A DNA stretch of 64,000 bases from a bacterium. Its GTDB lineage: Bacteria; BMS3Abin14. Shown one piece after another: positions 2,993 to 56,060 of the stretch. A program made the position numbers and the translations under genes. How positions within the stretch are numbered: position 1 is the stretch's first letter; each line of letters starts with the position of its first letter. The notes beneath the pieces are model-generated. The model was given only the letters and a program-made list of their open reading frames with translations. It was not told where the DNA came from and ran no database searches. The stretch lies in assembly GCA_029210965.1 (NCBI GenBank), contig JARGFZ010000002.1, positions 63,016 through 127,015 of the forward strand. The letters are read 5' to 3'.

Positions 2993-3025
2993 GTTGCCAT
3001 CTTGAAGGGTCTGTACAATTTTTTT

Positions 3026-3106
3026 CAGAACGCAGAACGCAGAACGCAGAACGCAGAACGCAGAACGCAGAACGCAGAACGCAGAACGCAGAACGCAGAA
3101 CGCAGA
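3026..3106. repeat. Tandem heptamer array (CAGAACG)n, about 11 copies
   Basis: Perfect 7-bp periodicity read directly. Spurious ORFs on both strands translate it as ...RSAFCVLRSAFCVL... Confidence 0.95.
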
Positions 3107-3153
3107 AGGGATAAGCAATGCTTTTGACAGCCGGACCGGGAGGGTGAACTGTT

Positions 3154-14340: not shown

Positions 14341-14588
14341 TTAGCCCGGACTATTCACGAGGTTCTTTTCCGTTCTGGCGGCGTTGCTGTGTCGTTCCCT
14401 TGTGCGGAATACTAAAGTATGCCTCCGCGCTCCCTGGACAGTCGCCTTGCCGGAACGAAAAACTCCTCTCGTGACTATGTCCGGACAACCCCGCATAATT
14501 CATGATGTTTATCGTGCCATTCCCATTTATCCATATTTGCCAAACAGTTAGCTCACATCTCATCACCATCATGAATAATGCGGGCTAG
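14341..14588. mobile_element. MITE-like non-autonomous element, copy 1 (imperfect TIRs of about 20 bp, TA flanks)
   Basis: About 90% identical to 34331..34587 over about 245 bp. Termini are gcccggactattcacgagg ... catcatgaataatgcgggc, the end being an imperfect reverse complement of the start. Both copies are flanked by TA. Confidence 0.7.
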
Positions 14589-15550
14589 AGACTGGCGACA
14601 TGGCCAGGGCATTCCCGGCAATGCTCCACCCGGCACTCGGCTGTTCTGCACCGCTCGTTGCAATACAGGACCGTGGTCACGTATCGGTCACCCCTGTCGG
14701 GAAGCAGCGTGACGATAGTGCCTGAATCCATTTCCAGAGCCAGGTCCAGTGCCACCCTGATAGCAGCCCCACTGGACATGCCCGAGAATATCCCCTCCCT
14801 GGAGGCCAGGGTCTTTGATGCTTCATAGGCGTCATCGTCCTGGATGACAACCTTACGATCAAGCTCCGCAGGAACGTAAATGCCCGGTACAATGGCCTCG
14901 GACATGTTTTTCAGACCCTGGACCTTGTGTCCCATTACCGGCTCCACTCCCACGATGGAAATGGAAGGGCCTTTGCTTTTGAGAAACCTGGAAATACCCA
15001 TGAGCGTCCCTGTGGTGCCCATGCCTGCAACGAACACATCTATATCACCTTCCGTCTGCTCCCATATTTCAGGGCCGGTTCCCGTAAAATGAGCCCGGAT
15101 GTTGTCAGGGTTGTTAAACTGATCAGGCATGTAGTAGGTGCCCGGGTCCTTCTCATGCATCCGCCTGGCTTCCATGATGGCGCCATCGGTCCCATGGCTC
15201 GCCGGTGTAAGGACGATCTCGGCGCCCAAAGCGGAGAGGACCCTCCTGCGTTCAATACTTACACCTTCCGACATGGTCAAAATGTTCCTGTACCCCTTGC
15301 AGGCGGCTACCAGTGAGATCCCGATACCGGTGTTCCCCGAGGTAGCCTCCAGGATCGTCATGCCTGATCTGAGCTCTCCCCTCGCCTCGGCTCCCTCGAT
15401 CATGGAAAGGGCGATCCGGTCCTTGACCGACCCCCCAGGGTTGTTTCCCTCCAGTTTGGCCAGTACTCTCACCTTGGGATTGGTGTTCATGTGCAGTATT
15501 TCCACGAGGGGTGTGTTGCCTATAGTATCCAGGATCGTCTTTTTGTTCAC
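14585..15550 (-). CDS. cysK: Cysteine synthase (O-acetylserine sulfhydrylase) with an unusual C-terminal Cys-rich tail
   Basis: GNTPLV...NPGGSVKDR...TSGNTGIG are the PLP fold-type II motifs. An extra tail of about 25 aa, CNERCRTAECRVEHCRECPGHVASL, follows the canonical end. Confidence 0.9.
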   Translation of the reverse strand: MNKKTILDTIGNTPLVEILHMNTNPKVRVLAKLEGNNPGGSVKDRIALSMIEGAEARGELRSGMTILEATSGNTGIGISLVAACKGYRNILTMSEGVSIERRRVLSALGAEIVLTPASHGTDGAIMEARRMHEKDPGTYYMPDQFNNPDNIRAHFTGTGPEIWEQTEGDIDVFVAGMGTTGTLMGISRFLKSKGPSISIVGVEPVMGHKVQGLKNMSEAIVPGIYVPAELDRKVVIQDDDAYEASKTLASREGIFSGMSSGAAIRVALDLALEMDSGTIVTLLPDRGDRYVTTVLYCNERCRTAECRVEHCRECPGHVASL

Positions 15551-22816: not shown

Positions 22817-24156
22817 ATGTACGGGGATAACCCTTCCCAGGCGCCCTGGGCATCGGCAAAGGAGAAACTCCGGCCGCTGGTAAGCTGGAGTATTTTTTCA
22901 CGTGTGCTTACTGGATCTACCAGTGCGCACGTCTTAAAGTCCGCTGAAGCGAGAAGATCCAGGAAGCACTCGCTTAACAAACCCTGCATCCAGTCAACAA
23001 TAGGGCTGTTGAAACCGGGTTTTGTCCTACTTCGCACAACTTCCTCCTGGACCAGACCCCCGTCCTGCTCGTTTCGCAGACCGTCAGAGCAGGCAATGAG
23101 CCTACTGCTTTCGGCCAGGTGGTTCTCTACCTCAGCTCTCATCATTTTCTTAAAGCCAGTTATCAGTTGTTTCCAGTTCGCCGTCCCTCACTGAAGCACA
23201 CCAGGCATTTCTTTTCCCAATTACCGACTGAATCACAAAACAGCCTCCTTTATCAAGGGGCTTTAGCGCGGTTTCTTGCCCCTCTCCGGCAACAGATGCT
23301 CCTTGAGGTCCCTGTTGACAGGCATCCGAGGCCTACCAGTCCATTTGGCCGCGCTTGATATTCCCGGAATTCCCGCAAGGAAAGAATCAGGGATTCTGGC
23401 ACCCCTTGCCAACCTTACCAGATCGTACGCACCGATCCGCAGGCTCGCCATAAATTCGTCCCTCAAACCCAACGCTGAGCTCGGAGAAAAGATTGTAAGG
23501 GGCGTATTTTTTAGGAGTTGGAGCAGGAGTTTTTCGCGATCATAGTGAAAATCGTTCGGCCTGTTGATCTGGCCTACGAAGGTAAAATCCGGTCTGGAAT
23601 CAGTATATGGATCCAATCGCTCCAGAACAGAGGGATTAAAAGAATGATCGATATGTTCTGAACAGAACCCCAATTTCCTGAACCTCTCTCTCAGCTCAGG
23701 GATACAAGTTAGCACCAGGTCGCTGGCAGCAAAAACCGAATGGTCAGAAAACGGAGCGCCGCACCAGACAACGACCAGCCTTATGAACGGCACTGCTGCA
23801 CGCAGGTCCCGTATCCAGGAACCCGGGAATTTATTGTACTCCGTGAGGAGCACGATGTCGGGGCTTATTTGCCTGATCTGACGGGTGACTAAGTGATAAA
23901 ACCAGTCGGGACCGTCCGACGGAACGTCATTCTCTCGTGCCCACGCCTTTTGAAGCGGTTCCGCGTTGGCCAGTATTTCCGTCGCGTCATAACCGAGAGG
24001 CTTTAATGCCGAAGTCCAGAAATCGGCAGTGCCGAATACATCCGCAAAAATTTCTTCCTGCTGCTGCGAGTATGGTTTATCCGACAGGCCCGGAATAGAC
24101 TGGTATATTTTCTGAAGATAGGCAGGGTATGCCGTGGAAAGCTTCACCAGCTTCAA
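22747..24156 (-). pseudogene. Disrupted tandem paralog of the CgeB-family glycosyltransferase
   Basis: ORF 23263..24156 aligns to the N-terminal two-thirds of the 21518..22816 product (MKLVKLSTAYPAYLQKIY vs MVRLSTVYPEYQRQFY). ORF 22747..23145 aligns weakly to the C-terminal part. Between them the reading frame carries several stops and a deletion relative to the intact paralog. Confidence 0.45.
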
Positions 24157-24481
24157 CGCGAGCCCCTTTGTGCAATCTCACTGGAAATAAAAACCTATTT
24201 TCTCAAGGGAACCCCATCCGACAGTCGGTCAGACTTTTGAAAACAGGCATTGCGCTCCTCGGCACGACTTTCTCACCGACCAGCCCTGGTAACCTCGGTT
24301 TAAGAATCTGACGGCCCCGGCCATGAACCGTCCGGTTCCGGCACGCCAGTTCTGTTTCAGGTCCCCGATGGTCTGTCGCTCGCTCCGAAGCTTGTCAGAT
24401 GCGAATGATCGGCTGGAGGTTCGATGCCCGGTTCTGGCTCCCGTACCCGAAGGTTTTTCATGTCCAGCTTGCGTTGTCTTT

Positions 24482-25237
24482 TCAAGCATCGTCGCGTAAA
24501 TCGCCGTGAGGCTTTTTCCAGATTACGGTTTTACAAAAACCCCTTACATAAGGGAGGATGCCAAAAAACTCCCGGCTCGGCCACTTTTCAATCAGCTTCA
24601 TGCCGGGCCGGTACCCCTCTCTTTCCGCGTTATCAAGCACAAGATATCCCCCCGGTTTTAGCTTCCCGCGGGCATGCCAGAGACAGGCGTTTCTGGCCCT
24701 GCCATCCACTACCACCAGATCGAAACTGCTGTCTTCATAGGCATCGATCTTACTTGCGTAGTCGTAAAATGTCATTCCAGGATACCCGCCATCCTCATAA
24801 CCAAGGGGACAAGGGTCCGTATCGCTTCTTACGGGGTCCGGGGACGGGACCTCAAGATAATACTCGCCGTTTGAAATTTCCTCCTCGTCGAGAAGGCTCT
24901 TAACCGTCGCATACCAGTCCTCATCGTGCTCAACAGACACGAGGTGTTTGACCCTGCCCAGGAAATAGAGGGTGGAACCTCCCGAGCCGAACTCGAAAAC
25001 AACGCTTTCAGGACCAATGGAGCGGCCGATAAAATCCTGACAAGCAAAGGGGAGCCAGGGGATCCGGTGAACGAGAGGGCTGCCCTCATGGGTAAAGGAG
25101 TTTTTCCAGGGCCTGTAGTATCGGAAGGCATCCCTAAGGTGAGAAACAATGCGGCCAGGCTGCGCCAGAACTACTTTTATTACAAGCTTAAGGTAGCTCC
25201 AGAAATAGCTTTTTATATCTTCGGGAAATGCAGTCAT
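24482..25237 (-). CDS. Class I SAM-dependent methyltransferase
   Basis: VVFEFGSGGSTLYF is SAM-binding motif I. Probable start is MTAFPEDIK. Confidence 0.6.
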   Translation of the reverse strand: MTAFPEDIKSYFWSYLKLVIKVVLAQPGRIVSHLRDAFRYYRPWKNSFTHEGSPLVHRIPWLPFACQDFIGRSIGPESVVFEFGSGGSTLYFLGRVKHLVSVEHDEDWYATVKSLLDEEEISNGEYYLEVPSPDPVRSDTDPCPLGYEDGGYPGMTFYDYASKIDAYEDSSFDLVVVDGRARNACLWHARGKLKPGGYLVLDNAEREGYRPGMKLIEKWPSREFFGILPYVRGFCKTVIWKKPHGDLRDDA

Positions 25238-25268
25238 CCCGGCTCCTTGCGGGGGAGGGCTGATCGTT

Positions 25269-26042
25269 TCATGGCAGGTCGCGGACAGTTTCCAACTGAG
25301 GTGCCACCGGACGCCACTCCTCCGCACTCATGAACAGGCCCGTTCTTTGCGTCTTTGCAATCAGACGATAACCAAGCTCAGACAAAAAACTATAAATGTC
25401 ACCGGAAACAATTTCCTCCGTTGCTGACTCGAGAAGTTCCACGGCAACGACCCGGGGCCTGAAACTGTTCCAATCGTTTGATCGCAGAACTTCCAGGTCC
25501 ATTCCCTCGGCATCCACGTTAAGGAAATCGATGGACCTTTTCAACGCCCACTTTTGCAGGATCTCCTTCAGGGGCAGGACCTGCACCTCGAGCGTCTCGA
25601 CAAGCCGGCACTTTCCCCTGCTCAACCTCTCACGGGTCAACGCCTGGTCAAAGGAGTTCAATGCGGGCTCATCTAGAACATAATATTCCATCGATCCCTT
25701 CTCAAGACCGACCCCCATGCACAGATTCACATCCCTTTTGCGATGGACCCTGAATTTCTCCAGGGCCTCGGGATTGGGCTCAATATTGATTCCGCTCCAT
25801 CCTGACTCGTAGAAGATCTGCGTGTTTGAAAAACGCTTCGGGTGGTGCGCGCCCACATCCACATAAAATCCATCCCTGCGGTTTTCAAGCAGGGACATCA
25901 CCAGGAGGTCTTCACCTTCCTGGGAGTAGGACTGAACCGCGTACCCGCTACCGTGTTCGAGATACAGATCACGCAAGGGCCTTACAAGCCTTTCCGGAAG
26001 GATCCTTTTCAGCTTGTCCTTAAGCACTCTTTTCGAAAACAC
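25269..26042 (-). CDS. FkbM-family methyltransferase
   Basis: GFYVDVGAHHPKRFSNT matches the FkbM motif; 257 aa. Confidence 0.7.
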   Translation of the reverse strand: MFSKRVLKDKLKRILPERLVRPLRDLYLEHGSGYAVQSYSQEGEDLLVMSLLENRRDGFYVDVGAHHPKRFSNTQIFYESGWSGINIEPNPEALEKFRVHRKRDVNLCMGVGLEKGSMEYYVLDEPALNSFDQALTRERLSRGKCRLVETLEVQVLPLKEILQKWALKRSIDFLNVDAEGMDLEVLRSNDWNSFRPRVVAVELLESATEEIVSGDIYSFLSELGYRLIAKTQRTGLFMSAEEWRPVAPQLETVRDLP

Positions 26043-27444: not shown

Positions 27445-27732
27445 ACTGCTAACCGTACACTGTTAAGCCTCAGGGAGTCCTGGCTGATCGATAGGTCATT
27501 ATAACGGGTCATGGGGGGAGTATACCGGAATCAGGAGTCAGGAGCCAGAATCCAGGAGACAGGGGGTAATAAAAGTACGCAGGACGTAGAACGCAGCACG
27601 CAGGAGGAAAACAGAGCGAAGGGCGCCAAGAGCAGTTCGGAGTGCGGTTCGCCTACCTCGGCTGGTGCAAAGAGACATTCCATTGAGATTGCATGACAAG
27701 TGAGCGATAAACCTGGATCCTAGACCCTGGTT

Positions 27733-30201: not shown

Positions 30202-31764
30202 GTGGCAAACCTGGTATTCAGGTTCCTGTGTCAGCTATTTCGGGCAGGCGGCTTTTTTAATCAAAAGTGTATATTTATTAGAGGCGTTGCATGGGTTCCC
30301 CTTAATAATATAGGATATTCATATGGCAATGGCCATACAATCGGCGCACAGTCCGGTCAAGGTAGGGGGGTGACTGTGTGGGCTATTATGGAATTAGAAG
30401 ACAAGGGAACCTGCCGCTTTCCCACCGTTGGGTTTTTCCGGGGCCTTTTCCCGGTAATCTTGAGATTTATCCTCGTGCACTGTATGGGAGCCGGGGGGAA
30501 TTTTGAGAAGCGGGACCGTGAAGCAGCCCTCAATTTTGTTGAAGCGGCCAGGGCTGCCTCAATCAGTCGCATCATTTACCTCGGAGGGCTGACCCACGGG
30601 GAATGCCTTTCATCCCATCTTCGCAGTCGCATGGAGGTTGGCCGCATCCTCAGGGAGAGCGGAGTCCCCACGGTGGAGTTCCGGGCTTCCGTCATAATCG
30701 GATCGGGGAGCCTTTCCTTTGGCATGGTCAGGGCTCTTGTGGAGTGCCTCCCGGTCATGATCACCCCCAAGTGGGTCCGGGCTCTCGCTCAGCCCATTGC
30801 CGTAGAGGATGTCATCCAATATCTGCTGGACGCAGTAGATCTGCCGCTGGAGGGCAGTGCTGTTTTCGAAATAGGTGGGGCAGACAAGGTGTCCTACGAA
30901 GGGATCATGCGGGAGTACGCCAGGCAGCGAAAGCTCCGAAGGATCATGATCCCGGTCCCCTTTTTTTCACCCAAGGCAGCGAGCTACTGACTGGCACTGG
31001 TTACGCCGCTATATTTCAGGGTGGGCCGCAAACGCATCGCTTCCGTGAAGAACGACAGTGTGGTTAGGGATGCAGCTGCTCTTGAGGCTTTTTCGATCAG
31101 ACCCAAGGGGCTTGCAGAAGCCATAACCAGGGCCATCGGGAACGAGGACCAGCAGTTTGCGGCAACCCACTGGTCCGACGCCCTGGCCGGAGACAACAAG
31201 GGACACCATCTGTGGGGTTTAGGTTTCGGGTCTCGCCTTGTAGACTCCTACACCAGGGTACTGGAATACTCGCCTTCGGAAGTATTTTTACCGATCCATT
31301 GTATAGGTGGAGACCACGGTTGTTACATTTACCGCTGGCTTTGGTGGATCAGGGGAACTCGGGACCGCTGTTTGGGAGGAGTGGGCCTGCGAAGGGGACG
31401 GCGGGATCCCTGCGATCTGCGGGTGGGAGACGCCATAGATTCCTGGCGGGTGGAAAAGTTCATTCCTGACCGTTTTCTCCTGCTTTTCTCAGAGATGAAG
31501 CTTCCAGGCCGGGCGTGGACCTACTTCGACGTTTCTCCCCATGAAAAAGGATCAAGGGTTCGAATAACAGCTGTCTTCGATCCCAAGGGTTTCTGGGGAA
31601 GGATCTTGTGGGTCACGGTTTCTCCTTTTCACGCCCTCGTGTTCAAAAGTATGCTTAAAGGTATCGCCAAGGCGGTCGAGCGCAATAAAAAGTGTCCGAT
31701 GCAGGTTGAATATGAAGCTTTCCCGATCACTGCGGTTTCATCTTCTCCCCTATATCCGGGGTGA
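30202..31764 (+). pseudogene. Decayed paralog of the downstream NmrA-like/DUF2867 gene
   Basis: A single reading frame aligns to residues about 70-485 of the 31894..33351 product. It is interrupted by an in-frame TGA (ASSY*LALVTPLY) exactly where the intact copy has TGG-Trp (SSHWLSLVTPLY). The N-terminal Rossmann GxxGxxG region is missing or degenerate. Confidence 0.5.
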
Positions 31765-31893: not shown

Positions 31894-33351
31894 ATGGAAG
31901 ATGATCGCCTTATTCTGCTCACCGCTGCGTCTGGATACATAGGAGGACGCCTTCTCTCTGATCTGGAGGACAGAGGGGAGAGGGTCCGATGCCTCGTGCG
32001 CCATCCAGTCTATATGCGTTCCCGTATCGAACCCAGGACCCAGATCGTTGGTGGGGATGTCCTCGACCCGGAATCACTGGAAAAAGCTCTGGAAGGTGTG
32101 CACACAGCTTATTATCTCGTTCATTCCCTCGGTGGAGGAGAGGACTATGAAGAAAAGGACCAACAGGCGGCATCAAACTTCGGCAAAGCCGCTCTAAAGG
32201 CAAGCGTACGGCAGATCATCTACCTTGGAAACCTGGGGCGAGGAGAGGATCTGTCACCCTATCTGGCCAGCCGCCAGGAGGTGGGCCGCATCCTGCGGGA
32301 GTCGGGGGTGCCCACAATCGAGTTCCAGTCCTCCATCATCATCGGCTCCGGGAGCCTGTCCTATGAAATGGTGAGGGGATTGGTGGAGCGCCTGCCCATC
32401 ATGATAGCCCCTCGCTGGGTAAGGTCGAAGGTTCAGCCCATCGCAGTAGAAGATGTTCTGGTGTATCTGATTCAGGCTCTCGACCTGCCGGAACCCGAAA
32501 ATAGGATCTATGAGGTCGGGGGGGCGGACATATCCTCCTATGAGGGTGTTTTGAGACAGTACGCCCGCCAGAGGGGGCTGCGCCGCATAATTATTTCCAT
32601 CCCCCTCCTCACACCGCAGTTGTCCAGTCACTGGCTGTCCCTTGTAACTCCCCTTTATTACAAGGTTGGGCACCAGCTTGTTGAAGGGGTCAGGAACGAG
32701 AGAACCGTCCAGGACCCGAAGGCTCTGGAGGTTTTTCCCCTCAGACCCATGGGCCTGACGAAAGCCATGTCAAGGGCTATGTCCAAGGAGGATCATCAGT
32801 TTGCCAAGACCCACTGGTCCGATGCCCTTCCGGATATCATCCCCGGTCATCACTGGTGGGGTATGCCATTCGATGGCAGGCGGGTTGATTCCTATCACCG
32901 GATTCTGCCCTATTCCCCCGAGGAGGTTTTCACTCCCATCCAGTGTGTGGGGGGGGAGCATGGATGGTACGGCTGCAACTGGATGTGGAAAATAAGGGGG
33001 GCCATGGACCGATTGATTGGCGGCGTCGGCCTGCGCAGGGGGCGCAGGGAGCTCTGTGACATAAGAGTCGGGGATGCTATTGATTTCTGGCGGGTGGAAA
33101 AATACGTAGAGAACACACACCTTCTGCTTTACGCCGAGATGAAGCTGCCTGGCCGGGCGTGGCTCTATTTCGAGGTGGGTCCCAACGAGAAGGGCGCCGA
33201 GGTCCGTATGACGGCTGTTTTCGATCCCATGGGTGTATGGGGGAGGGTTTACTGGTACCTTGTCTATCCTTTCCATTACCTGGTCTTTAACAGCATGTTC
33301 AAGGGGATCGTCAGGGCTATTGAACAAAACAAAAAGGAGTGTGTCGTTTGA
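31894..33351 (+). CDS. NAD(P)-binding NmrA/SDR-like domain fused to DUF2867
   Basis: LLTAASGYIGGRL Rossmann motif at the N-terminus. The C-terminal half is the DUF2867-type domain. 485 aa, intact. Confidence 0.7.
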   Translation: MEDDRLILLTAASGYIGGRLLSDLEDRGERVRCLVRHPVYMRSRIEPRTQIVGGDVLDPESLEKALEGVHTAYYLVHSLGGGEDYEEKDQQAASNFGKAALKASVRQIIYLGNLGRGEDLSPYLASRQEVGRILRESGVPTIEFQSSIIIGSGSLSYEMVRGLVERLPIMIAPRWVRSKVQPIAVEDVLVYLIQALDLPEPENRIYEVGGADISSYEGVLRQYARQRGLRRIIISIPLLTPQLSSHWLSLVTPLYYKVGHQLVEGVRNERTVQDPKALEVFPLRPMGLTKAMSRAMSKEDHQFAKTHWSDALPDIIPGHHWWGMPFDGRRVDSYHRILPYSPEEVFTPIQCVGGEHGWYGCNWMWKIRGAMDRLIGGVGLRRGRRELCDIRVGDAIDFWRVEKYVENTHLLLYAEMKLPGRAWLYFEVGPNEKGAEVRMTAVFDPMGVWGRVYWYLVYPFHYLVFNSMFKGIVRAIEQNKKECVV

Positions 33352-33989: not shown

Positions 33990-34280
33990 TTGGAGGTAGT
34001 GTCGACCATCGCGTCAGGGGCGCGACTCATGCGATCCCATCCGAAAAAATCTGTTCTTTCCCTTACGTTCACTAATGGCGCTAAATCCAATGGGCAGGTC
34101 ATAAAGGGCATGAAAGAGCTGGCCAAAGGTAACGAGCCCTATATGCTTGGGGCGGCCCTTGTGGGTGTAAAGGGTCTTCAAAAGATCGTTGCGGATGCCG
34201 CCAGCCTGTTTTTCAACCGTGAATTTGCCGCCTTTGACGACATGGATGAGGCGAAGGAATGTCTGCTCTCGCACGGGTAA
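33990..34280 (+). CDS. Small STAS/SpoIIAA-like domain protein (tentative)
   Basis: 96 aa. The pattern ...VKGLQKIVADAASLFFNREFAAFDDMDEAKECL resembles STAS-like families that end ...eeAleWL. Confidence 0.35.
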   Translation: MEVVSTIASGARLMRSHPKKSVLSLTFTNGAKSNGQVIKGMKELAKGNEPYMLGAALVGVKGLQKIVADAASLFFNREFAAFDDMDEAKECLLSHG

Positions 34281-34330
34281 AATAAAGTACCCGGTACCCA
34301 GGAGCCAGTAGCCAGGAGGAAAGAACTGTA

Positions 34331-34587
34331 TCTAAGTCTCTAGCCCGGACTATTCACGAGGTTCTTTTCCGTTCCGGCGGCGTTGCTGAGTCGTTCGCTT
34401 GTGCGGAATACTAAAGTATGCCTCCGCGCTCACTGGACAGTCGCCTTGCCGGAACGAAAAACTCCTCTCCTGACTCTGTCCGCTCAACCCCGCCTAATTC
34501 ATGATGCTTATAGCGCCATTCCCATTTATCTTTAATTGCCACACAGTTAGCTGACATCTCATTTGCATCATGAATAATGCGGGCTAG
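34331..34587. mobile_element. MITE-like non-autonomous element, copy 2
   Basis: See copy 1 (14341..14588). Same orientation, about 90% identity, TA on both flanks. Confidence 0.7.
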
Positions 34588-35192: not shown

Positions 35193-35597
35193 CTCAGGCA
35201 ATGCCTCCCCTCGGCAAAATATCCCGGTCAAACACCTGTTAGCAGAAGATAAGTCGGTGGGCTTTCTTTATGATTGCCTACCGAACAACACAATATTTTA
35301 GAGGAATACAGAAATAAAATCCACCATCTAATAACGGATTTTTTTAAACGCAGAGTTCGCGAAGGACGCAGAGGAAGGCTCTAAACTTGGGAAAGCGCGG
35401 TTACTTTAATAGCAGAATGCAGAACGTAGAACGTAGAACGTAGAATTAAACTCGAACCCGAACCCGAATGTTCTGTCATTCCGGGCAAAGCGCAAGGGAT
35501 GACCCGGAATCCAGTATCTTAAAGTGATTAAAGCCTTAACGCAGGAGGAGATCAAAAGCATGTTGATTACAGTAATCAGCTGACAGACAATTTCTCT

Positions 35598-35677
35598 TGC
35601 ACCTTGCACCTTGCACCTTGCACCTTGCACCTTGCACCTTGCACCTTGCACCTTGCACCTTGCACCTTGCACCTTGG
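35598..35677. repeat. Tandem heptamer array (GCACCTT)n, about 11 copies
   Basis: Perfect 7-bp period read directly. It is preceded at about 35413..35470 by (CAGAACG/TAGAACG)n and (AACCCGA)n arrays. Confidence 0.95.
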
Positions 35678-35678
35678 A

Positions 35679-36851
35679 TCAACCAACCCCTTCGATCATA
35701 AAGATCGTCACCTCAGGTGGTGCGAAAAGCCTCAGTGGAGGCCCCCATGTCCCGGTTCCGCGGCTGGTGTAAATTTTAGATCCCATCCCGAGATCATACA
35801 GGCCTGCCAAATAGGGATAGCGCAGTTTAACCGGATAGTTGAAGGGGAAGATCTGGCCCTTGTGTGTGTGGCCGGACAGCTGGAGCTGGAAGCGTCCCAG
35901 GGATGATTCCTCGATGACAGGATGGTGTTTTAACATGATCGTAAAGAGACCCTCCTCATCACCCATGTTCAGGGCGGCTCCCTCGTCGGTGTAGGAGAGT
36001 TGCCTGGTTTGCCGTTCTGCCGGAAAGTCAACACCTGCTATACGTACAGGACCGGTTGTCACTGCCTGGCCGCGCAGCACGGTGAACCCGGCATCCTTGA
36101 TAAAGGCAAGGCTTTCCTTGAGGCCGGCGTAAAACTCATGATTACCGGTGACAGCAAATTTTCCCAGGGGAGGGTTGATGGCGGCAAAATAGGCGCTCAT
36201 GTGGTTAAGGTGAGGAATCGCCCCGTCCATGAAGTCCCCTGTACAAACTAGAAGATCCGGTTTCTCATCAAAAATTATGGAGGCTATCTGATCGATACGC
36301 TTCTGGCCTTCAATGACCCCGAGGTGCACATCCGATATTTGAGCGACCTTGACCGGTTTGCTGCCAAGGGGGAGAAGCTGTGTTCTGATAGTGATCCTTT
36401 CCGTTTTCAGGTTCCGGGCTTCAAAAAAGCCAAGGACAGTAGCCGCTGATATAATAACGATAATGGCAATATATGCTGCTTTCGGGGGCAGGATGAGTCT
36501 GTAGGATTCCGGTGTGATAAGAGCTGCCGCCCTCACTCCCGTGTTCCACAGGTCCCGGACAATACCCAGGGACAGAAACCACAGCAGGATCGCCATCCAG
36601 GTGTAGGAGACCCATGCCATGGCGGTTGCTCCCAATATCTGGTCATTTCTTTCCAGAAAACGAACGAGAATGGGCCCGTTCAGCATCAGGAGCAGGAACC
36701 CGGTAAGAAGAGCAAGCCACCACCCCTGAGGTTGAAGAACCTGAACAGTCTTCCAGAAAAAATAGGCGTGCATGCTGCCGTAGATGCCAAAATAGATGAG
36801 AAGGAAAATCAGCATATTATTTCCCCAGGGTGCAGTTATGTGGGAATTCAC
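35679..36851 (-). CDS. Membrane-anchored metallophosphoesterase (calcineurin-like)
   Basis: Has ISDVHLG...GDFMDG...GNHEF motifs. N-terminal TM helices. Confidence 0.8.
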   Translation of the reverse strand: MNSHITAPWGNNMLIFLLIYFGIYGSMHAYFFWKTVQVLQPQGWWLALLTGFLLLMLNGPILVRFLERNDQILGATAMAWVSYTWMAILLWFLSLGIVRDLWNTGVRAAALITPESYRLILPPKAAYIAIIVIISAATVLGFFEARNLKTERITIRTQLLPLGSKPVKVAQISDVHLGVIEGQKRIDQIASIIFDEKPDLLVCTGDFMDGAIPHLNHMSAYFAAINPPLGKFAVTGNHEFYAGLKESLAFIKDAGFTVLRGQAVTTGPVRIAGVDFPAERQTRQLSYTDEGAALNMGDEEGLFTIMLKHHPVIEESSLGRFQLQLSGHTHKGQIFPFNYPVKLRYPYLAGLYDLGMGSKIYTSRGTGTWGPPLRLFAPPEVTIFMIEGVG

Positions 36852-50275: not shown

Positions 50276-50653
50276 ATGGCGGAAAGACTTCAGGTTTACA
50301 AATGTGGAGTGTGCGGCAATATCGTGGAAGTGGCTCATGGCGGGGCCGGGGAGTTGGTCTGCTGCGGACAGCCCATGAACCTCCTGGTTGAAAACACCAC
50401 CGATGCTGCCGTGGAAAAGCATGTTCCGGTGGTTGAGGAGCTGGAGCACGGCATCAAGGTTACGGTAGGAAGCGTCCCCCATCCCATGGGTGATGACCAT
50501 TATATCGAGTGGATAGAGGTAGTGGCTGGCGGCAGGTCATACACAGAATATCTGTCTCCCGGCGGCGCTGCTGAAGCCACATTTTGTGTAAAGGCTGCCG
50601 AGGTGACCATGGTTAGGGAGTACTGCAACCTTCATGGGCATTGGAAAGCGTAG
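50276..50653 (+). CDS. dfx: Desulfoferrodoxin (2Fe superoxide reductase)
   Basis: N-terminal desulforedoxin [10 protein letters not shown]...CCGQPM plus a SOR domain (EKHVPV...H...C). AAAGGAGA RBS 8 nt upstream of the ATG. Confidence 0.9.
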
Positions 50654-50658
50654 AATTC

Positions 50659-50695
50659 AGTAGCCAGTAGCCAGTAGCCAGTAGCCAGTAGCCAG
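50659..50695. repeat. Tandem heptamer array (AGTAGCC)5
   Basis: Read directly, immediately after the dfx stop. Confidence 0.9.
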
Positions 50696-53796: not shown

Positions 53797-54189
53797 TTGT
53801 TCTTAAGACTTTTTTTACTCTTCACTCTCATCCCCGCTATTGAGCTTTTTCTCATCATCAAGGTGGGTTCAGTGATCGGTGCCCTTAACACCATTCTCAT
53901 CATCATTTTCACAGGTATTCTGGGCGCCTATTACGCCCGGGAGCAGGGGTTCAGGGTCGTCAGCAATATCCAGATGAAGATGCAGCAGGGGGTTGCTCCC
54001 GGGGATGACCTGATCAACGGTGCCATGCTACTGGTGGGCGGTGCTTTTCTTATCACCCCGGGCTTTCTTACTGACTTCGCGGGTTTTGCCCTTATCTTCC
54101 CCCCCACGAGAGAGGCGATCAAGGTGGGTGTGAAGCGCTCTCTGGAGAAAAGGGTGCGCCAGGGGCAGGTGAAGGTGTATCGGTATTAA
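53797..54189 (+). CDS. fxsA: FxsA-family inner membrane protein
   Basis: LLFTLIPAIELFLIIKVGSVIG plus 3 TMs; 130 aa. Confidence 0.75.
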   Translation: MFLRLFLLFTLIPAIELFLIIKVGSVIGALNTILIIIFTGILGAYYAREQGFRVVSNIQMKMQQGVAPGDDLINGAMLLVGGAFLITPGFLTDFAGFALIFPPTREAIKVGVKRSLEKRVRQGQVKVYRY

Positions 54190-54946
54190 AAAGCAGAACC
54201 CAGTAGCCAGGATCCAGTAGCCAGTAGGGCAAACCGCCTGACACGGAGACACGGTGACGCGGAGACACGGGGTTAAAACTGGTGGTCGGTGATCGGTAAA
54301 GCCGAACCCGAATTCGAACCCGGGAGCGATCTTAGGCAAAAGCTTTTGACATGGATGAAGGGGATAGATGGGATGATTGGTGAAACCCTGAAATCCCCTC
54401 TTGTCATTGCGAGCGAAGCGCGGCAATCCCGGTTTACATAAAGACGGTGTTTTCCACTACCGTGAATGTTGGTTTGTTTTTGCTAGTCACGAGCTACTAG
54501 CCACAAGATCTCTTTTGAATCTTGAATTGCCCTTTCGCTCAGTCGCCAAGTCGCCTAGTCGGAAAGTCGGTTGTTAATGACCCTTATCTTCCATCTCTAT
54601 CTAATCGCTCCTCTTGTCCTGGTAGTTTTCATATACCGTTCGGGTAAGCGATCCTGGTAAACCCTCGTAACCGTTCCGGTAGCCTTCTATTCCCTCCCCG
54701 TACTTGTTGTGATCGGATTCTACCTTCTGCGCACTCCCATACAGCAGGGGAGATTCCTGGCAGAGTTCGGCCCGATCTTGAGCCTGGTCTTTCCTCCGGA
54801 AGATCTTTATGTCCCCTTGGCTTCTGTGGCTCTCGGACCGGTCAAGAAAGAATACAGCGCTGATTTTATTCATAAATATGTTGGCTATCATGCGGTGGAG
54901 ATATCCATACCCGGTAAGTCGAAAATGAGATGCCGGGCTCAAAGCT

Positions 54947-56052
54947 GAAGTGCAACACTTAGAGGAGTTAAAGTGTTGCAATGGAAAAGACATACGAGCA
55001 TTTGGATTGCACGGAACGTGCGATGATTCAATTGGGGCTGGAGCAAGGGCTTTCGTTGCGATCAATCGCCCGAAGTTTGCATCGCCCCGTGAGTACAGTG
55101 AGTCAGGAATTACATCGGAATGGTTGGGAGCCTCCCGCGGTTCGTATGGGGCGGCGGGGCCGACGTCCGGTGGCGGGCGGTTATCAGGCCGTGCGAGCTG
55201 AACAACGCGCCAGACAAGTGGAGTGTCAGCCGAGAAAAGCCAAGCGACTGGTTCCGGGCGAGGCGCTCTGGAACGAAGTCGTTAATCTCTTGAAGGCTGG
55301 CAACTCACCGGAGCAGGTTTCTGCTACACTGAAGCGTATGCACCCTGAAGAGCCGCAGTTCCAGGTCAGCCATGAGACCATCTACACGGCGATCTACGCG
55401 ATGCCGCGCGGCGAGTTGCGCAAGGAGATCATTGCCTTGTTGCGACAATCACGCAAGAAGCGTCGGCCACGCACCCGCGGGGAAGATCGACGTGGCAGCA
55501 TACCGAACATGGTCAGCATTCATGAGCGACCTGCCGAAGTGGAAGAACGGCTGGTCCCGGGCCACTGGGATGGTGATCTGATCAAGGGGGCGCGCAACGC
55601 CTCAGCTGTCGGGACACTGGTGGAACGCAGCTGCTTGTTTGTGACCCTGGCCAAAGTCGACAATGCCAGCACCGAAACCGCAGAAAAAGGATTCAGCTTC
55701 GTTCTCAACCGGATTGATGCCCAACGGCGATTGAGTATGACCTACGACCAGGGCAAGGAGATGGCCTGTCACGAGAAGTTGGCCGAGAACACGAAAATCA
55801 AGGTCTACTTTGCCGACCCACATAGCCCTTGGCAACGCGGTATCAACGAGAACACCAATGGGTTGCTGCGCCAGTATTTGCCAAATAGAACAGACCTGTC
55901 TGCTTACTCTCAAAAGGAGCTTGACCAGATTGCCTTGAAGCTTAACACCAGGCCGAGGAAAAGCCTTGGCTGGAAGTGCCCGGCGGAAATCTTCTTGCCG
56001 GACTTTAATTTTGAAGAATATTATGGGCGCATCTTAAACCCTGTTGCACTTC
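54947..56052 (+). mobile_element. IS30-family insertion sequence (about 1.1 kb) with 11-bp terminal inverted repeats GAAGTGCAACA
   Basis: Left end gaagtgcaaca (about 54947) and right end tgttgcacttc (about 56052) are exact reverse complements. A single transposase ORF lies between them. Confidence 0.8.
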
Positions 56053-56060
56053 GAACTTGA
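54981..56060 (+). CDS. IS30-family transposase (DDE)
   Basis: N-terminal HTH (LSLRSIARSLHRPVSTVSQELHRN) and a DDE core (HWDGDLI...TYDQGKEM...DPHSPWQRGINENTNGLLRQY). Confidence 0.85.
   Translation: MEKTYEHLDCTERAMIQLGLEQGLSLRSIARSLHRPVSTVSQELHRNGWEPPAVRMGRRGRRPVAGGYQAVRAEQRARQVECQPRKAKRLVPGEALWNEVVNLLKAGNSPEQVSATLKRMHPEEPQFQVSHETIYTAIYAMPRGELRKEIIALLRQSRKKRRPRTRGEDRRGSIPNMVSIHERPAEVEERLVPGHWDGDLIKGARNASAVGTLVERSCLFVTLAKVDNASTETAEKGFSFVLNRIDAQRRLSMTYDQGKEMACHEKLAENTKIKVYFADPHSPWQRGINENTNGLLRQYLPNRTDLSAYSQKELDQIALKLNTRPRKSLGWKCPAEIFLPDFNFEEYYGRILNPVALRT

Follow-up and report, generated by a model that had tools for sequence, protein, structure and literature searches.

We have analyzed a 64-kb stretch of bacterial DNA, referred to here as the window, which carries two copies of a short repeat that lie 20 kb apart. 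Copy 1 is located between the stop codon of a cysK gene and the start of a gene for PBP1A, and is antisense to the transcription of both. Copy 2 is sense to its upstream ORF. The initial annotation had labelled the 96-aa ORF beside copy 2 as STAS-like; this label was not reproduced, as the ORF had no NCBIfam match. The ORF downstream of copy 2 matches the ArsF family (NF040494). The coordinates of the two copies, their parts and the other features of the window are presented in Table 1.

Table 1. Positions in the window of the two repeat copies, their component parts and other features (strand and remarks where assigned)
Feature	Position	Strand	Remarks
Copy 1, left target copy	14341-14344		TTAG on +, CTAA on the cysK strand; a diverged CTAG (empty sites carry a single CTAG)
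Copy 1, element proper	14345-14584	+	240 nt: module A, 4-nt spacer, module B
Copy 1, outer left terminal repeat CCCGGACTATTCACGAGG	14345-14362	+	18/18 identical to the IS1380-family IS end in L004 and L017; 54 sites in other genomes
Copy 1, module A	14345-14485	+	141-nt full-length hairpin, 52 pairs
Copy 1, module A inner arm	14465-14485		Degenerate inverted copy of the outer repeat
Copy 1, spacer	14486-14489		CAAC, 4 nt, between the modules
Copy 1, module B	14490-14584	+	95 nt: 18-nt arms, 59-nt loop
Copy 1, module B arm CCCGCATAATTCATGATG	14490-14507
Copy 1, module B arm CATCATGAATAATGCGGG	14567-14584
Copy 1, sigma-70-like site	14552-14579	+	Weak; CTCACA or CTGACA, 16 nt, AATAAT
Copy 1, right target copy	14585-14588		CTAG; holds the cysK stop (TAG on the minus strand, 14587-14585)
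cysK	14585-15550	-	Ends in the right-hand CTAG
Copy 2, left target duplication	34340-34343		CTAG
Copy 2, element proper	34344-34583	+	240 nt, 91.7% identical to copy 1
Copy 2, module A	34344-34484
Copy 2, spacer	34485-34488
Copy 2, module B	34489-34583
Copy 2, sigma-70-like site	34551-34578	+	Weak; hexamers and spacing as for copy 1
Copy 2, right target duplication	34584-34587		CTAG
Heptamer arrays	2549-2590, 3012-3123, 27517-27614, 34277-34318, 35399-35454, 35582-35690, 50650-50691, 54186-54228		Tandem heptanucleotide repeats
216-nt direct repeat	31477-31692, 33121-33336		70% identity
NmrA/DUF2867 gene	31894-33351		485 aa
IS30-family transposase gene	54981-56057	+	NF033563, 2.2e-87

The two copies align without gaps and in the same orientation over 240 nt, with 220 identical positions, and thus confirm the two ~90%-identical copies that had been described. 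The coordinates given earlier for copy 1 were right, as were the end sequences quoted for both copies; the start given for copy 2 (34331) lies ~10 nt too far to the left, since the flank begins at 34340. A comparison of the flanks had been proposed as a check for segmental duplication. The flanks of the two copies are unrelated and the similarity ends abruptly on either side, so segmental duplication is excluded and the repeat is a discrete one. A third copy, a degenerate copy or a solo module was not found in the window by sensitive blastn and nhmmer searches. The exact 240-bp composite had no match beyond the two copies in a species-level genome scan, in 72,556 plasmids or in the JGI metagenomes: blastn against the plasmids returned only chance matches of 25-30 nt, and an interior 20-mer of the element returned a single unrelated 26-nt chance match from the metagenomes. 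Copy 2 is also present, intact, in the sister strain GCA_032251125.1 (locus L073, 5445-5694). We conclude that the element is non-coding: its longest ORF, of 73 aa on the minus strand of copy 1, is interrupted by a stop in copy 2, and a search of 5.8 billion proteins returned no homologue.

Each copy is made up of two hairpins, a structure that was overlooked in the initial annotation. When either strand is folded, the start of the element does not pair with its end, and the fold consists of two consecutive hairpins, corresponding to modules A and B. Both strands fold far better than shuffled sequences (z -4.3 to -6.6). The outer ends of the element are complementary at 14 of 18 positions (CCCGGACTATTCACGAGG compared with CCCGCATTATTCATGATG, the reverse complement of the right end), while the two arms of module B are complementary at 17 of 18. 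Variants of the motif CCCG-A--ATTCA-GA-G are common to all four arms, and the 18-mer with up to 3 mismatches is seen 2-4 times in the window, against 0.02-0.04 occurrences expected by chance. The spacer between the modules has the same length, 4 nt, as the target duplication described below. Neither module A nor module B is flanked by a matching 4-bp duplication of its own. The 20 substitutions that separate the copies had been described as scattered, which holds only in part: the outermost 31 nt of the left end and 18 nt of the right end are free of them, and five fall in the inner arms. None is compensated, and in copy 2 the basal stem of hairpin A is disrupted by several of them.

Several other repeats were observed in the window. 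Tandem heptanucleotide arrays of four kinds, (CAGAACG)n, (CTTGCAC)n, (CCAGTAG)n and (AGAGTGC)n, occur at eight positions, one of them immediately upstream of copy 2. Similar heptamers (CCAAAGY) are found downstream of cysK in a more distant relative, GCA_020349685.1 (L074). The second copy of the 216-nt direct repeat lies at the 3' end of the NmrA/DUF2867 gene; this repeat is probably a duplicated domain, because the ORF that directly precedes this gene in the sister strain also carries DUF2867.

The insertion site of copy 1 and the sister strain

As had been reported, copy 1 abuts the stop codon of cysK, which ends in the right-hand CTAG. A search for CysK homologues identified two close relatives, L080 and L081, whose CysK proteins are 96% identical in amino acid sequence and whose cysK loci do not contain the element. 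Both read ...CTCTAGATGGTTCC... where the window has CTCTAG, the 240 nt and CTAAAGGGTTCC. On the cysK strand, L080 has the cysK stop directly joined to the PBP1A upstream region (...GACCTCTAGATGGTTCCGTGTTGACACTTAACCC), whereas the window reads ...AGTCTCTAG, 240 nt, CTAAAGGGTTCCATGTTGACACTTAACCC. Because the relatives carry a single CTAG and no element, copy 1 is an insertion with duplication of CTAG, and the stop codon existed before it. The gain amounts to 244 bp, that is, the 240-bp element and a second copy of the CTAG target which now reads CTAA. The element does not, as had been proposed, supply the cysK stop; the TAG lay in the pre-existing target, as L080 and L081 show. The length of CysK, 321 aa, is the same in relatives whether or not they carry the insertion.

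The empty sites have some features of their own. L081 is like L080 except for a 15-nt tandem duplication of TCTAGATGGTTCC(A/G)T. This duplication (L081 1443-1472, TCTAGATGGTTCCAT/TCTAGATGGTTCCGT) includes the CTAG target, and could be the result of replication slippage or the footprint of an earlier event. In L080 a scaffold gap of 100 N lies 50 nt past the site, bracketed by a duplicated 54-nt overlap which looks like a scaffolding artefact. The C-terminus of CysK (window 14588-14660, minus strand) is a cysteine-rich tail, ...CNERCRTAECRVEHCRECPGHVASL; the protein is 321 aa long in homologues of 72-96% identity and ~302 aa in more distant ones (~60%). For copy 2, a look-up of the exact proteins of the flanking genes, made to find an empty site, returned no record.

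As a result of the insertion of copy 1, two strong hairpins now lie between the stop of cysK and the start of PBP1A; both proteins are unchanged. An effect of these hairpins on the neighbouring genes or on read-through transcripts is possible.

The sister strain GCA_032251125.1 is 99.8-99.98% identical to the window over shared DNA. Its contig 4 (L001) stops in the loop of module B, at window position 14512. Its contig 31 (L054) starts with an ISNCY/IS1202-like IS, represented by the N-terminus of the transposase (NF033594, 9.7e-18) and the IS end ...GGACTAACAGC, which is joined directly to window position 14344; the 167 nt of the element between (14345-14511) are missing or replaced. The break on contig 31 thus coincides exactly with the outer left terminus of the element, and the ISNCY element is absent from the window. 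High repetitiveness of the element was considered as a reason for the break of the sister assembly at copy 1. This was rejected, since copy 2 was assembled intact and the break lies beside the ISNCY element. Elsewhere, window positions ~23016-25550 correspond to positions 1-2535 of L001, where ~2.5 kb of the sister contig has no megablast match to the window. This segment of the sister strain contains FrhB/FdhB-like and polysaccharide pyruvyl-transferase genes. It is a strain-variable polysaccharide-synthesis segment of similar length in both strains, because the DNA on both sides is >99.7% identical.

Terminal sequences, target sites and IS1380-family partners

The initial annotation had assigned the element to the IS630 family. 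It had also stated that the window holds no transposase of that family, and this is correct: the IS30-family gene listed in Table 1 is the only recognised transposase, and it is unrelated to the ends of the element. A search for IS1380 transposases (tblastn) likewise found none in the 64-kb window. The family of the element was instead traced through its ends in other genomes. A scan of one genome per species gave 54 exact matches to the 18-mer CCCGGACTATTCACGAGG in 51 loci, where ~17 matches would be expected by chance in 596 Gb by our own estimate. The loci belong to Planctomycetota, Acidobacteriota/Holophagae, Myxococcota (Polyangiaceae), Proteobacteria and Actinomycetota, and a single Pirellulaceae MAG accounts for 12 of the 51. 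Inverted pairs of the ends at distances of 175-277 nt represent short elements bounded by the same repeat; 33 such pairs were scored, a few of them overlapping alternatives.

An all-against-all comparison of the ORFs in these loci led to a repeat in an Acidobacteriota MAG (L004 2334-4013, 94% identical to L017). Within it, L004 2337-4009 is a ~1.67-kb element that starts with the same 18-mer, ends in ...GATGAATTATCCGGG and has TTAG on both sides. Its 455-aa ORF matches PF13701 (1.1e-119) and the NCBIfam model NF033539, IS1380 family transposase (7.2e-106), which represent transposases of the DDE type. At least 7,995 homologues of this transposase were found at E<=1e-30. The DNA around three of them contains elements of 1674-1683 bp with ends CCCGGAYTATTCAC... 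and ...TGAATAATCCGGG or ...TGAATAATGCGGG; the latter form of the right end is identical at 13 of 13 positions to the right end of the window element. The outer right arm of module B is identical at 23 of 28 positions to the 3' end of one IS1380-family IS, P0013. Wherever these ends were found on an element with a transposase, that element was of the IS1380 family, and an IS630-family element with CCCGGACTATTCA ends was found neither among the 51 loci nor among the fetched IS copies. Between the ends, the element interior shows no similarity beyond 18-28 nt to the subterminal parts of four IS1380 lineages. No mention of the terminal sequence or of the assembly accession was found in the literature.

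The flanks of the related elements define the target site. The IS with transposase P0040 occurs in copies whose flanks are TTAA/TTAA, CTAA/CTAA and CTAG/CTAG. The bases beside the TA thus vary between copies of one IS and repeat on both sides, and are therefore derived from the target. Short elements in phyla other than that of the Pirellulaceae mostly have CTAG/CTAG flanks. In the Pirellulaceae MAG, 187-nt copies have variable 5-bp direct repeats (TTTAC, CTCAA, CTGAT, TTGAA, ATAAA, TTTAA, GCAAG, TTAAG) that directly abut CCCGG...CCGGG. Mismatched flanks such as CTAG/CTAA occur on some short metagenomic contigs, and at least one of these loci, L058, is visibly chimeric between two insertion sites, with the left flank of L056 and the right flank of L059. 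The flanking tetranucleotides of copy 1 differ at one base (TTAG and CTAG). The element has the ends CCCGG...CCGGG, the target YTAR and a 4-bp duplication. The TA flanks noted initially are present on both sides, where they sit within a 4-bp YTAG. Duplication of TA alone did not hold, since the flanking bases repeat directly (TTAG/TTAG in addition to TTAA/TTAA and CTAA/CTAA) and relatives have 5-bp duplications without TA. In the window copies by themselves, duplications of 4 bp and 2 bp are inseparable because CTAG is palindromic, and the distinction rests on the related elements.

Six elements of 175-177 nt (L009, L018, L023, L026, L027 and L048), from Planctomycetota, Acidobacteriota, Myxococcota and Proteobacteria, were compared. 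Their shared sequence is limited to the 18-nt ends and a small stem at the apex (CGTAS-loop-STACG), and their interiors can barely be aligned. Each is nevertheless a near-perfect full-length hairpin, with 62-69 symmetric pairs. In a sequence alignment of the six, 22 of 57 consensus pairs have changed in both partners; pairing is found in 82.5% of cells and falls to 34-42% if the partner column is shifted, and the covariation score was reached by none of 500 shuffles. Module A has the same layout as these elements. It would be tempting to place the window element with them in a class of non-autonomous IS1380/piggyBac-like elements that spans several phyla and retains a hairpin over the full length of the element, but we consider this rather improbable. 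If the palindrome is under selection, this could reflect a requirement of the transposase or a function of the RNA or DNA hairpin for the host. Alternatively, fold-back synthesis from IS ends, or repair from arm to arm, could regenerate the palindrome without selection.

Origin and significance of the element

The two copies and their anatomy, ends identical to those of IS1380 elements, the 4-bp duplication of that family and the empty site of copy 1 were all observed directly. Each copy is very probably a non-autonomous MITE derived from the IS1380 family of insertion sequences. As is the case for MITEs, the 240 bp are non-coding, have terminal inverted repeats and a target duplication, and are polymorphic for presence and absence (L080, L081); descent from the IS1380 family is indicated by ends common to elements with PF13701/NF033539 transposases and by a duplication of 4-5 bp. 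The initial proposal of a non-autonomous transposable element that has terminal inverted repeats and duplicates its target site is thus supported, but not its family assignment. In the mechanism that we propose, an IS1380-family DDE transposase encoded outside the window would recognise the outer ends, CCCGGAYTATTCA..., and insert the 240-bp unit into YTAR (here CTAG), duplicating 4 bp. Mobilisation in trans may be carried out by a transposase of this particular genome.

Other kinds of element account less well for these observations. An IS630/Tc1-mariner-type MITE that duplicates TA would read GCCCGG...CCGGGC and be 242 bp long. TA does flank both copies on both sides, and a 2-bp duplication looks like a 4-bp one at the palindromic CTAG; however, the base between TA and CCCGG is target-derived in the P0040 copies, the Pirellulaceae repeats include ones without TA such as CTGAT and GCAAG, and the transposases that accompany these ends are those of the IS1380 family. 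The IS30-family gene aside, the window offers no transposase, and the HTH fragment in the sister strain scores better as ISNCY (9.7e-18) than as IS630 (1.4e-4) and belongs to an IS whose end is unlike that of the element. An IS630 origin is accordingly highly improbable. The chance that the repeat is a REPIN/REP element moved by a RAYT tyrosine transposase, or a palindromic element of the IS200/IS605 type, is negligible: its long hairpins and intergenic location are reminiscent of these, but its ends equal those of elements with DDE transposases, its termini lack a GTAG head, and it has target duplications, which REPIN/RAYT and IS200/IS605-type elements are not known to make. A conserved structured small RNA or cis-regulatory RNA in two paralogous copies, with the hairpins as its functional structure, had been raised as an alternative and is very unlikely. 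The strong folding of both strands would agree with it, as would the retention of pairing despite sequence turnover in the related 176-nt hairpin elements and the weak outward promoter-like site at the right end of both copies (which at copy 1 would read antisense into cysK). The folding is, however, accounted for by inverted repeats that match transposon ends, and the promoter-like hexamers are only weak. Rfam gave no match at gathering thresholds over the whole window and only a meaningless one (E=7.4) on the element at a permissive E<=10, and no terminator-like site (a hairpin followed by a T-run) occurs in or beside either copy. The lack of compensation at all 20 substitutions and the erosion of hairpin A in copy 2 also argue against a conserved RNA, as do the differing orientations to neighbouring genes (copy 1 antisense, copy 2 sense) and the absence of the element at the same site in close relatives.

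The composition of the IS1380-derived unit from two modules may be explained in two ways. It is probably a fused dimer, formed by a tandem insertion that later moved as one. One mini-element would have inserted into the CTAG flanking another, leaving modules A and B 4 nt apart; the shared junction and the inner ends would then have decayed, and the pair would later have moved as one unit through its intact outer ends only. Both copies have the same A-spacer-B layout in different flanks, and the duplication is found at the outer ends only. Each insertion of this family makes two new CTAG targets at its own borders, and the Pirellulaceae loci L008 and L040 provide examples of elements that abut or are nested. 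Movement as one unit is suggested because the outer ends are unchanged and the inner ends are decaying; this history is drawn from two copies. The main alternative is that a single MITE arose by internal deletion of one IS, with outer ends that represent its left and right repeats (IRL and IRR) and inner copies that are secondary fold-back duplications. This is favoured by the outer ends, which resemble the two differing ends of a P0013-like IS (CCCGGAC... and CCCGCAT...), and by the absence from either module of its own matching 4-bp duplication. Against it, the spacer is equal in length to the duplication, solitary elements that form a full hairpin, as module A does, are common elsewhere, and the abutting and nested Pirellulaceae elements also speak for fusion. 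We regard the single-deletion origin as unlikely, but as deserving more weight than any of the readings in the preceding paragraph.

IS1380 and ISEcp1 are members of the IS1380 family. Another member, IS1247, is 1672 bp long and makes a 5-bp direct repeat (PMC3281130). Its size and duplication fit the IS1380 elements recovered here, and its 5-bp repeat matches that of the Pirellulaceae copies. The window element resembles this family in its identical or near-identical terminal sequence, in ends that begin with CC and in a 4-5-bp duplication; unlike an IS1380 IS, it lacks a transposase gene, is 240 bp rather than ~1.67 kb in length, and consists of two hairpin modules with an unrelated interior. 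Bacterial MITEs include Correia/NEMIS, RUP and ERIC elements. The Tn3-derived TIMEs are also bacterial MITEs (PMC4133298). Like these, the element is short, non-coding and intergenic, shares its terminal inverted repeats with an autonomous family, duplicates its target and varies in presence between strains. It differs from bacterial MITEs in general by its IS1380 parent, by its dimeric form, and by a module A that is a near-complete palindrome rather than terminal repeats alone. Descriptions of IS1380-derived MITEs were not found in the literature searched.

MITEs derived from the eukaryotic piggyBac elements use TTAA targets. IS1380 transposases have served as the prokaryotic outgroup of piggyBac (PMC10813416). 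The element is like piggyBac MITEs in having a 4-bp palindrome-like target with a central TA (YTAR, including TTAA in L055) and termini that start with CCC; it is unlike them in its bacterial host, in a target that is mostly CTAG and not strictly TTAA, and in that one subfamily has 5-bp duplications. Like REPINs, it forms a long imperfect hairpin (100-180 nt) between genes, although its target duplications, DDE-type IS ends and lack of any RAYT association set it apart, and it is not a member of that group.

From the wider viewpoint of genome biology the finding is an ordinary one of mobile DNA; the element is of an ordinary kind, and reports of such miniatures from its family are rare. The family assignment is corrected, in that these elements ride on transposases of the IS1380 family, the bacterial relatives of piggyBac, and not on those of IS630. 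Copy 1 illustrates that an element can enter a CTAG overlapping a stop codon without altering the protein, and the dimer, if correctly read, that miniature elements lying side by side can be mobilised together as a unit. If palindromy is selected, the hairpin class would represent mobile elements under structural constraint rather than simple deletion derivatives. The defined ends and target, CCCGG...CCGGG at YTAR with 4 bp duplicated, let annotators find elements that are currently unannotated in many phyla.
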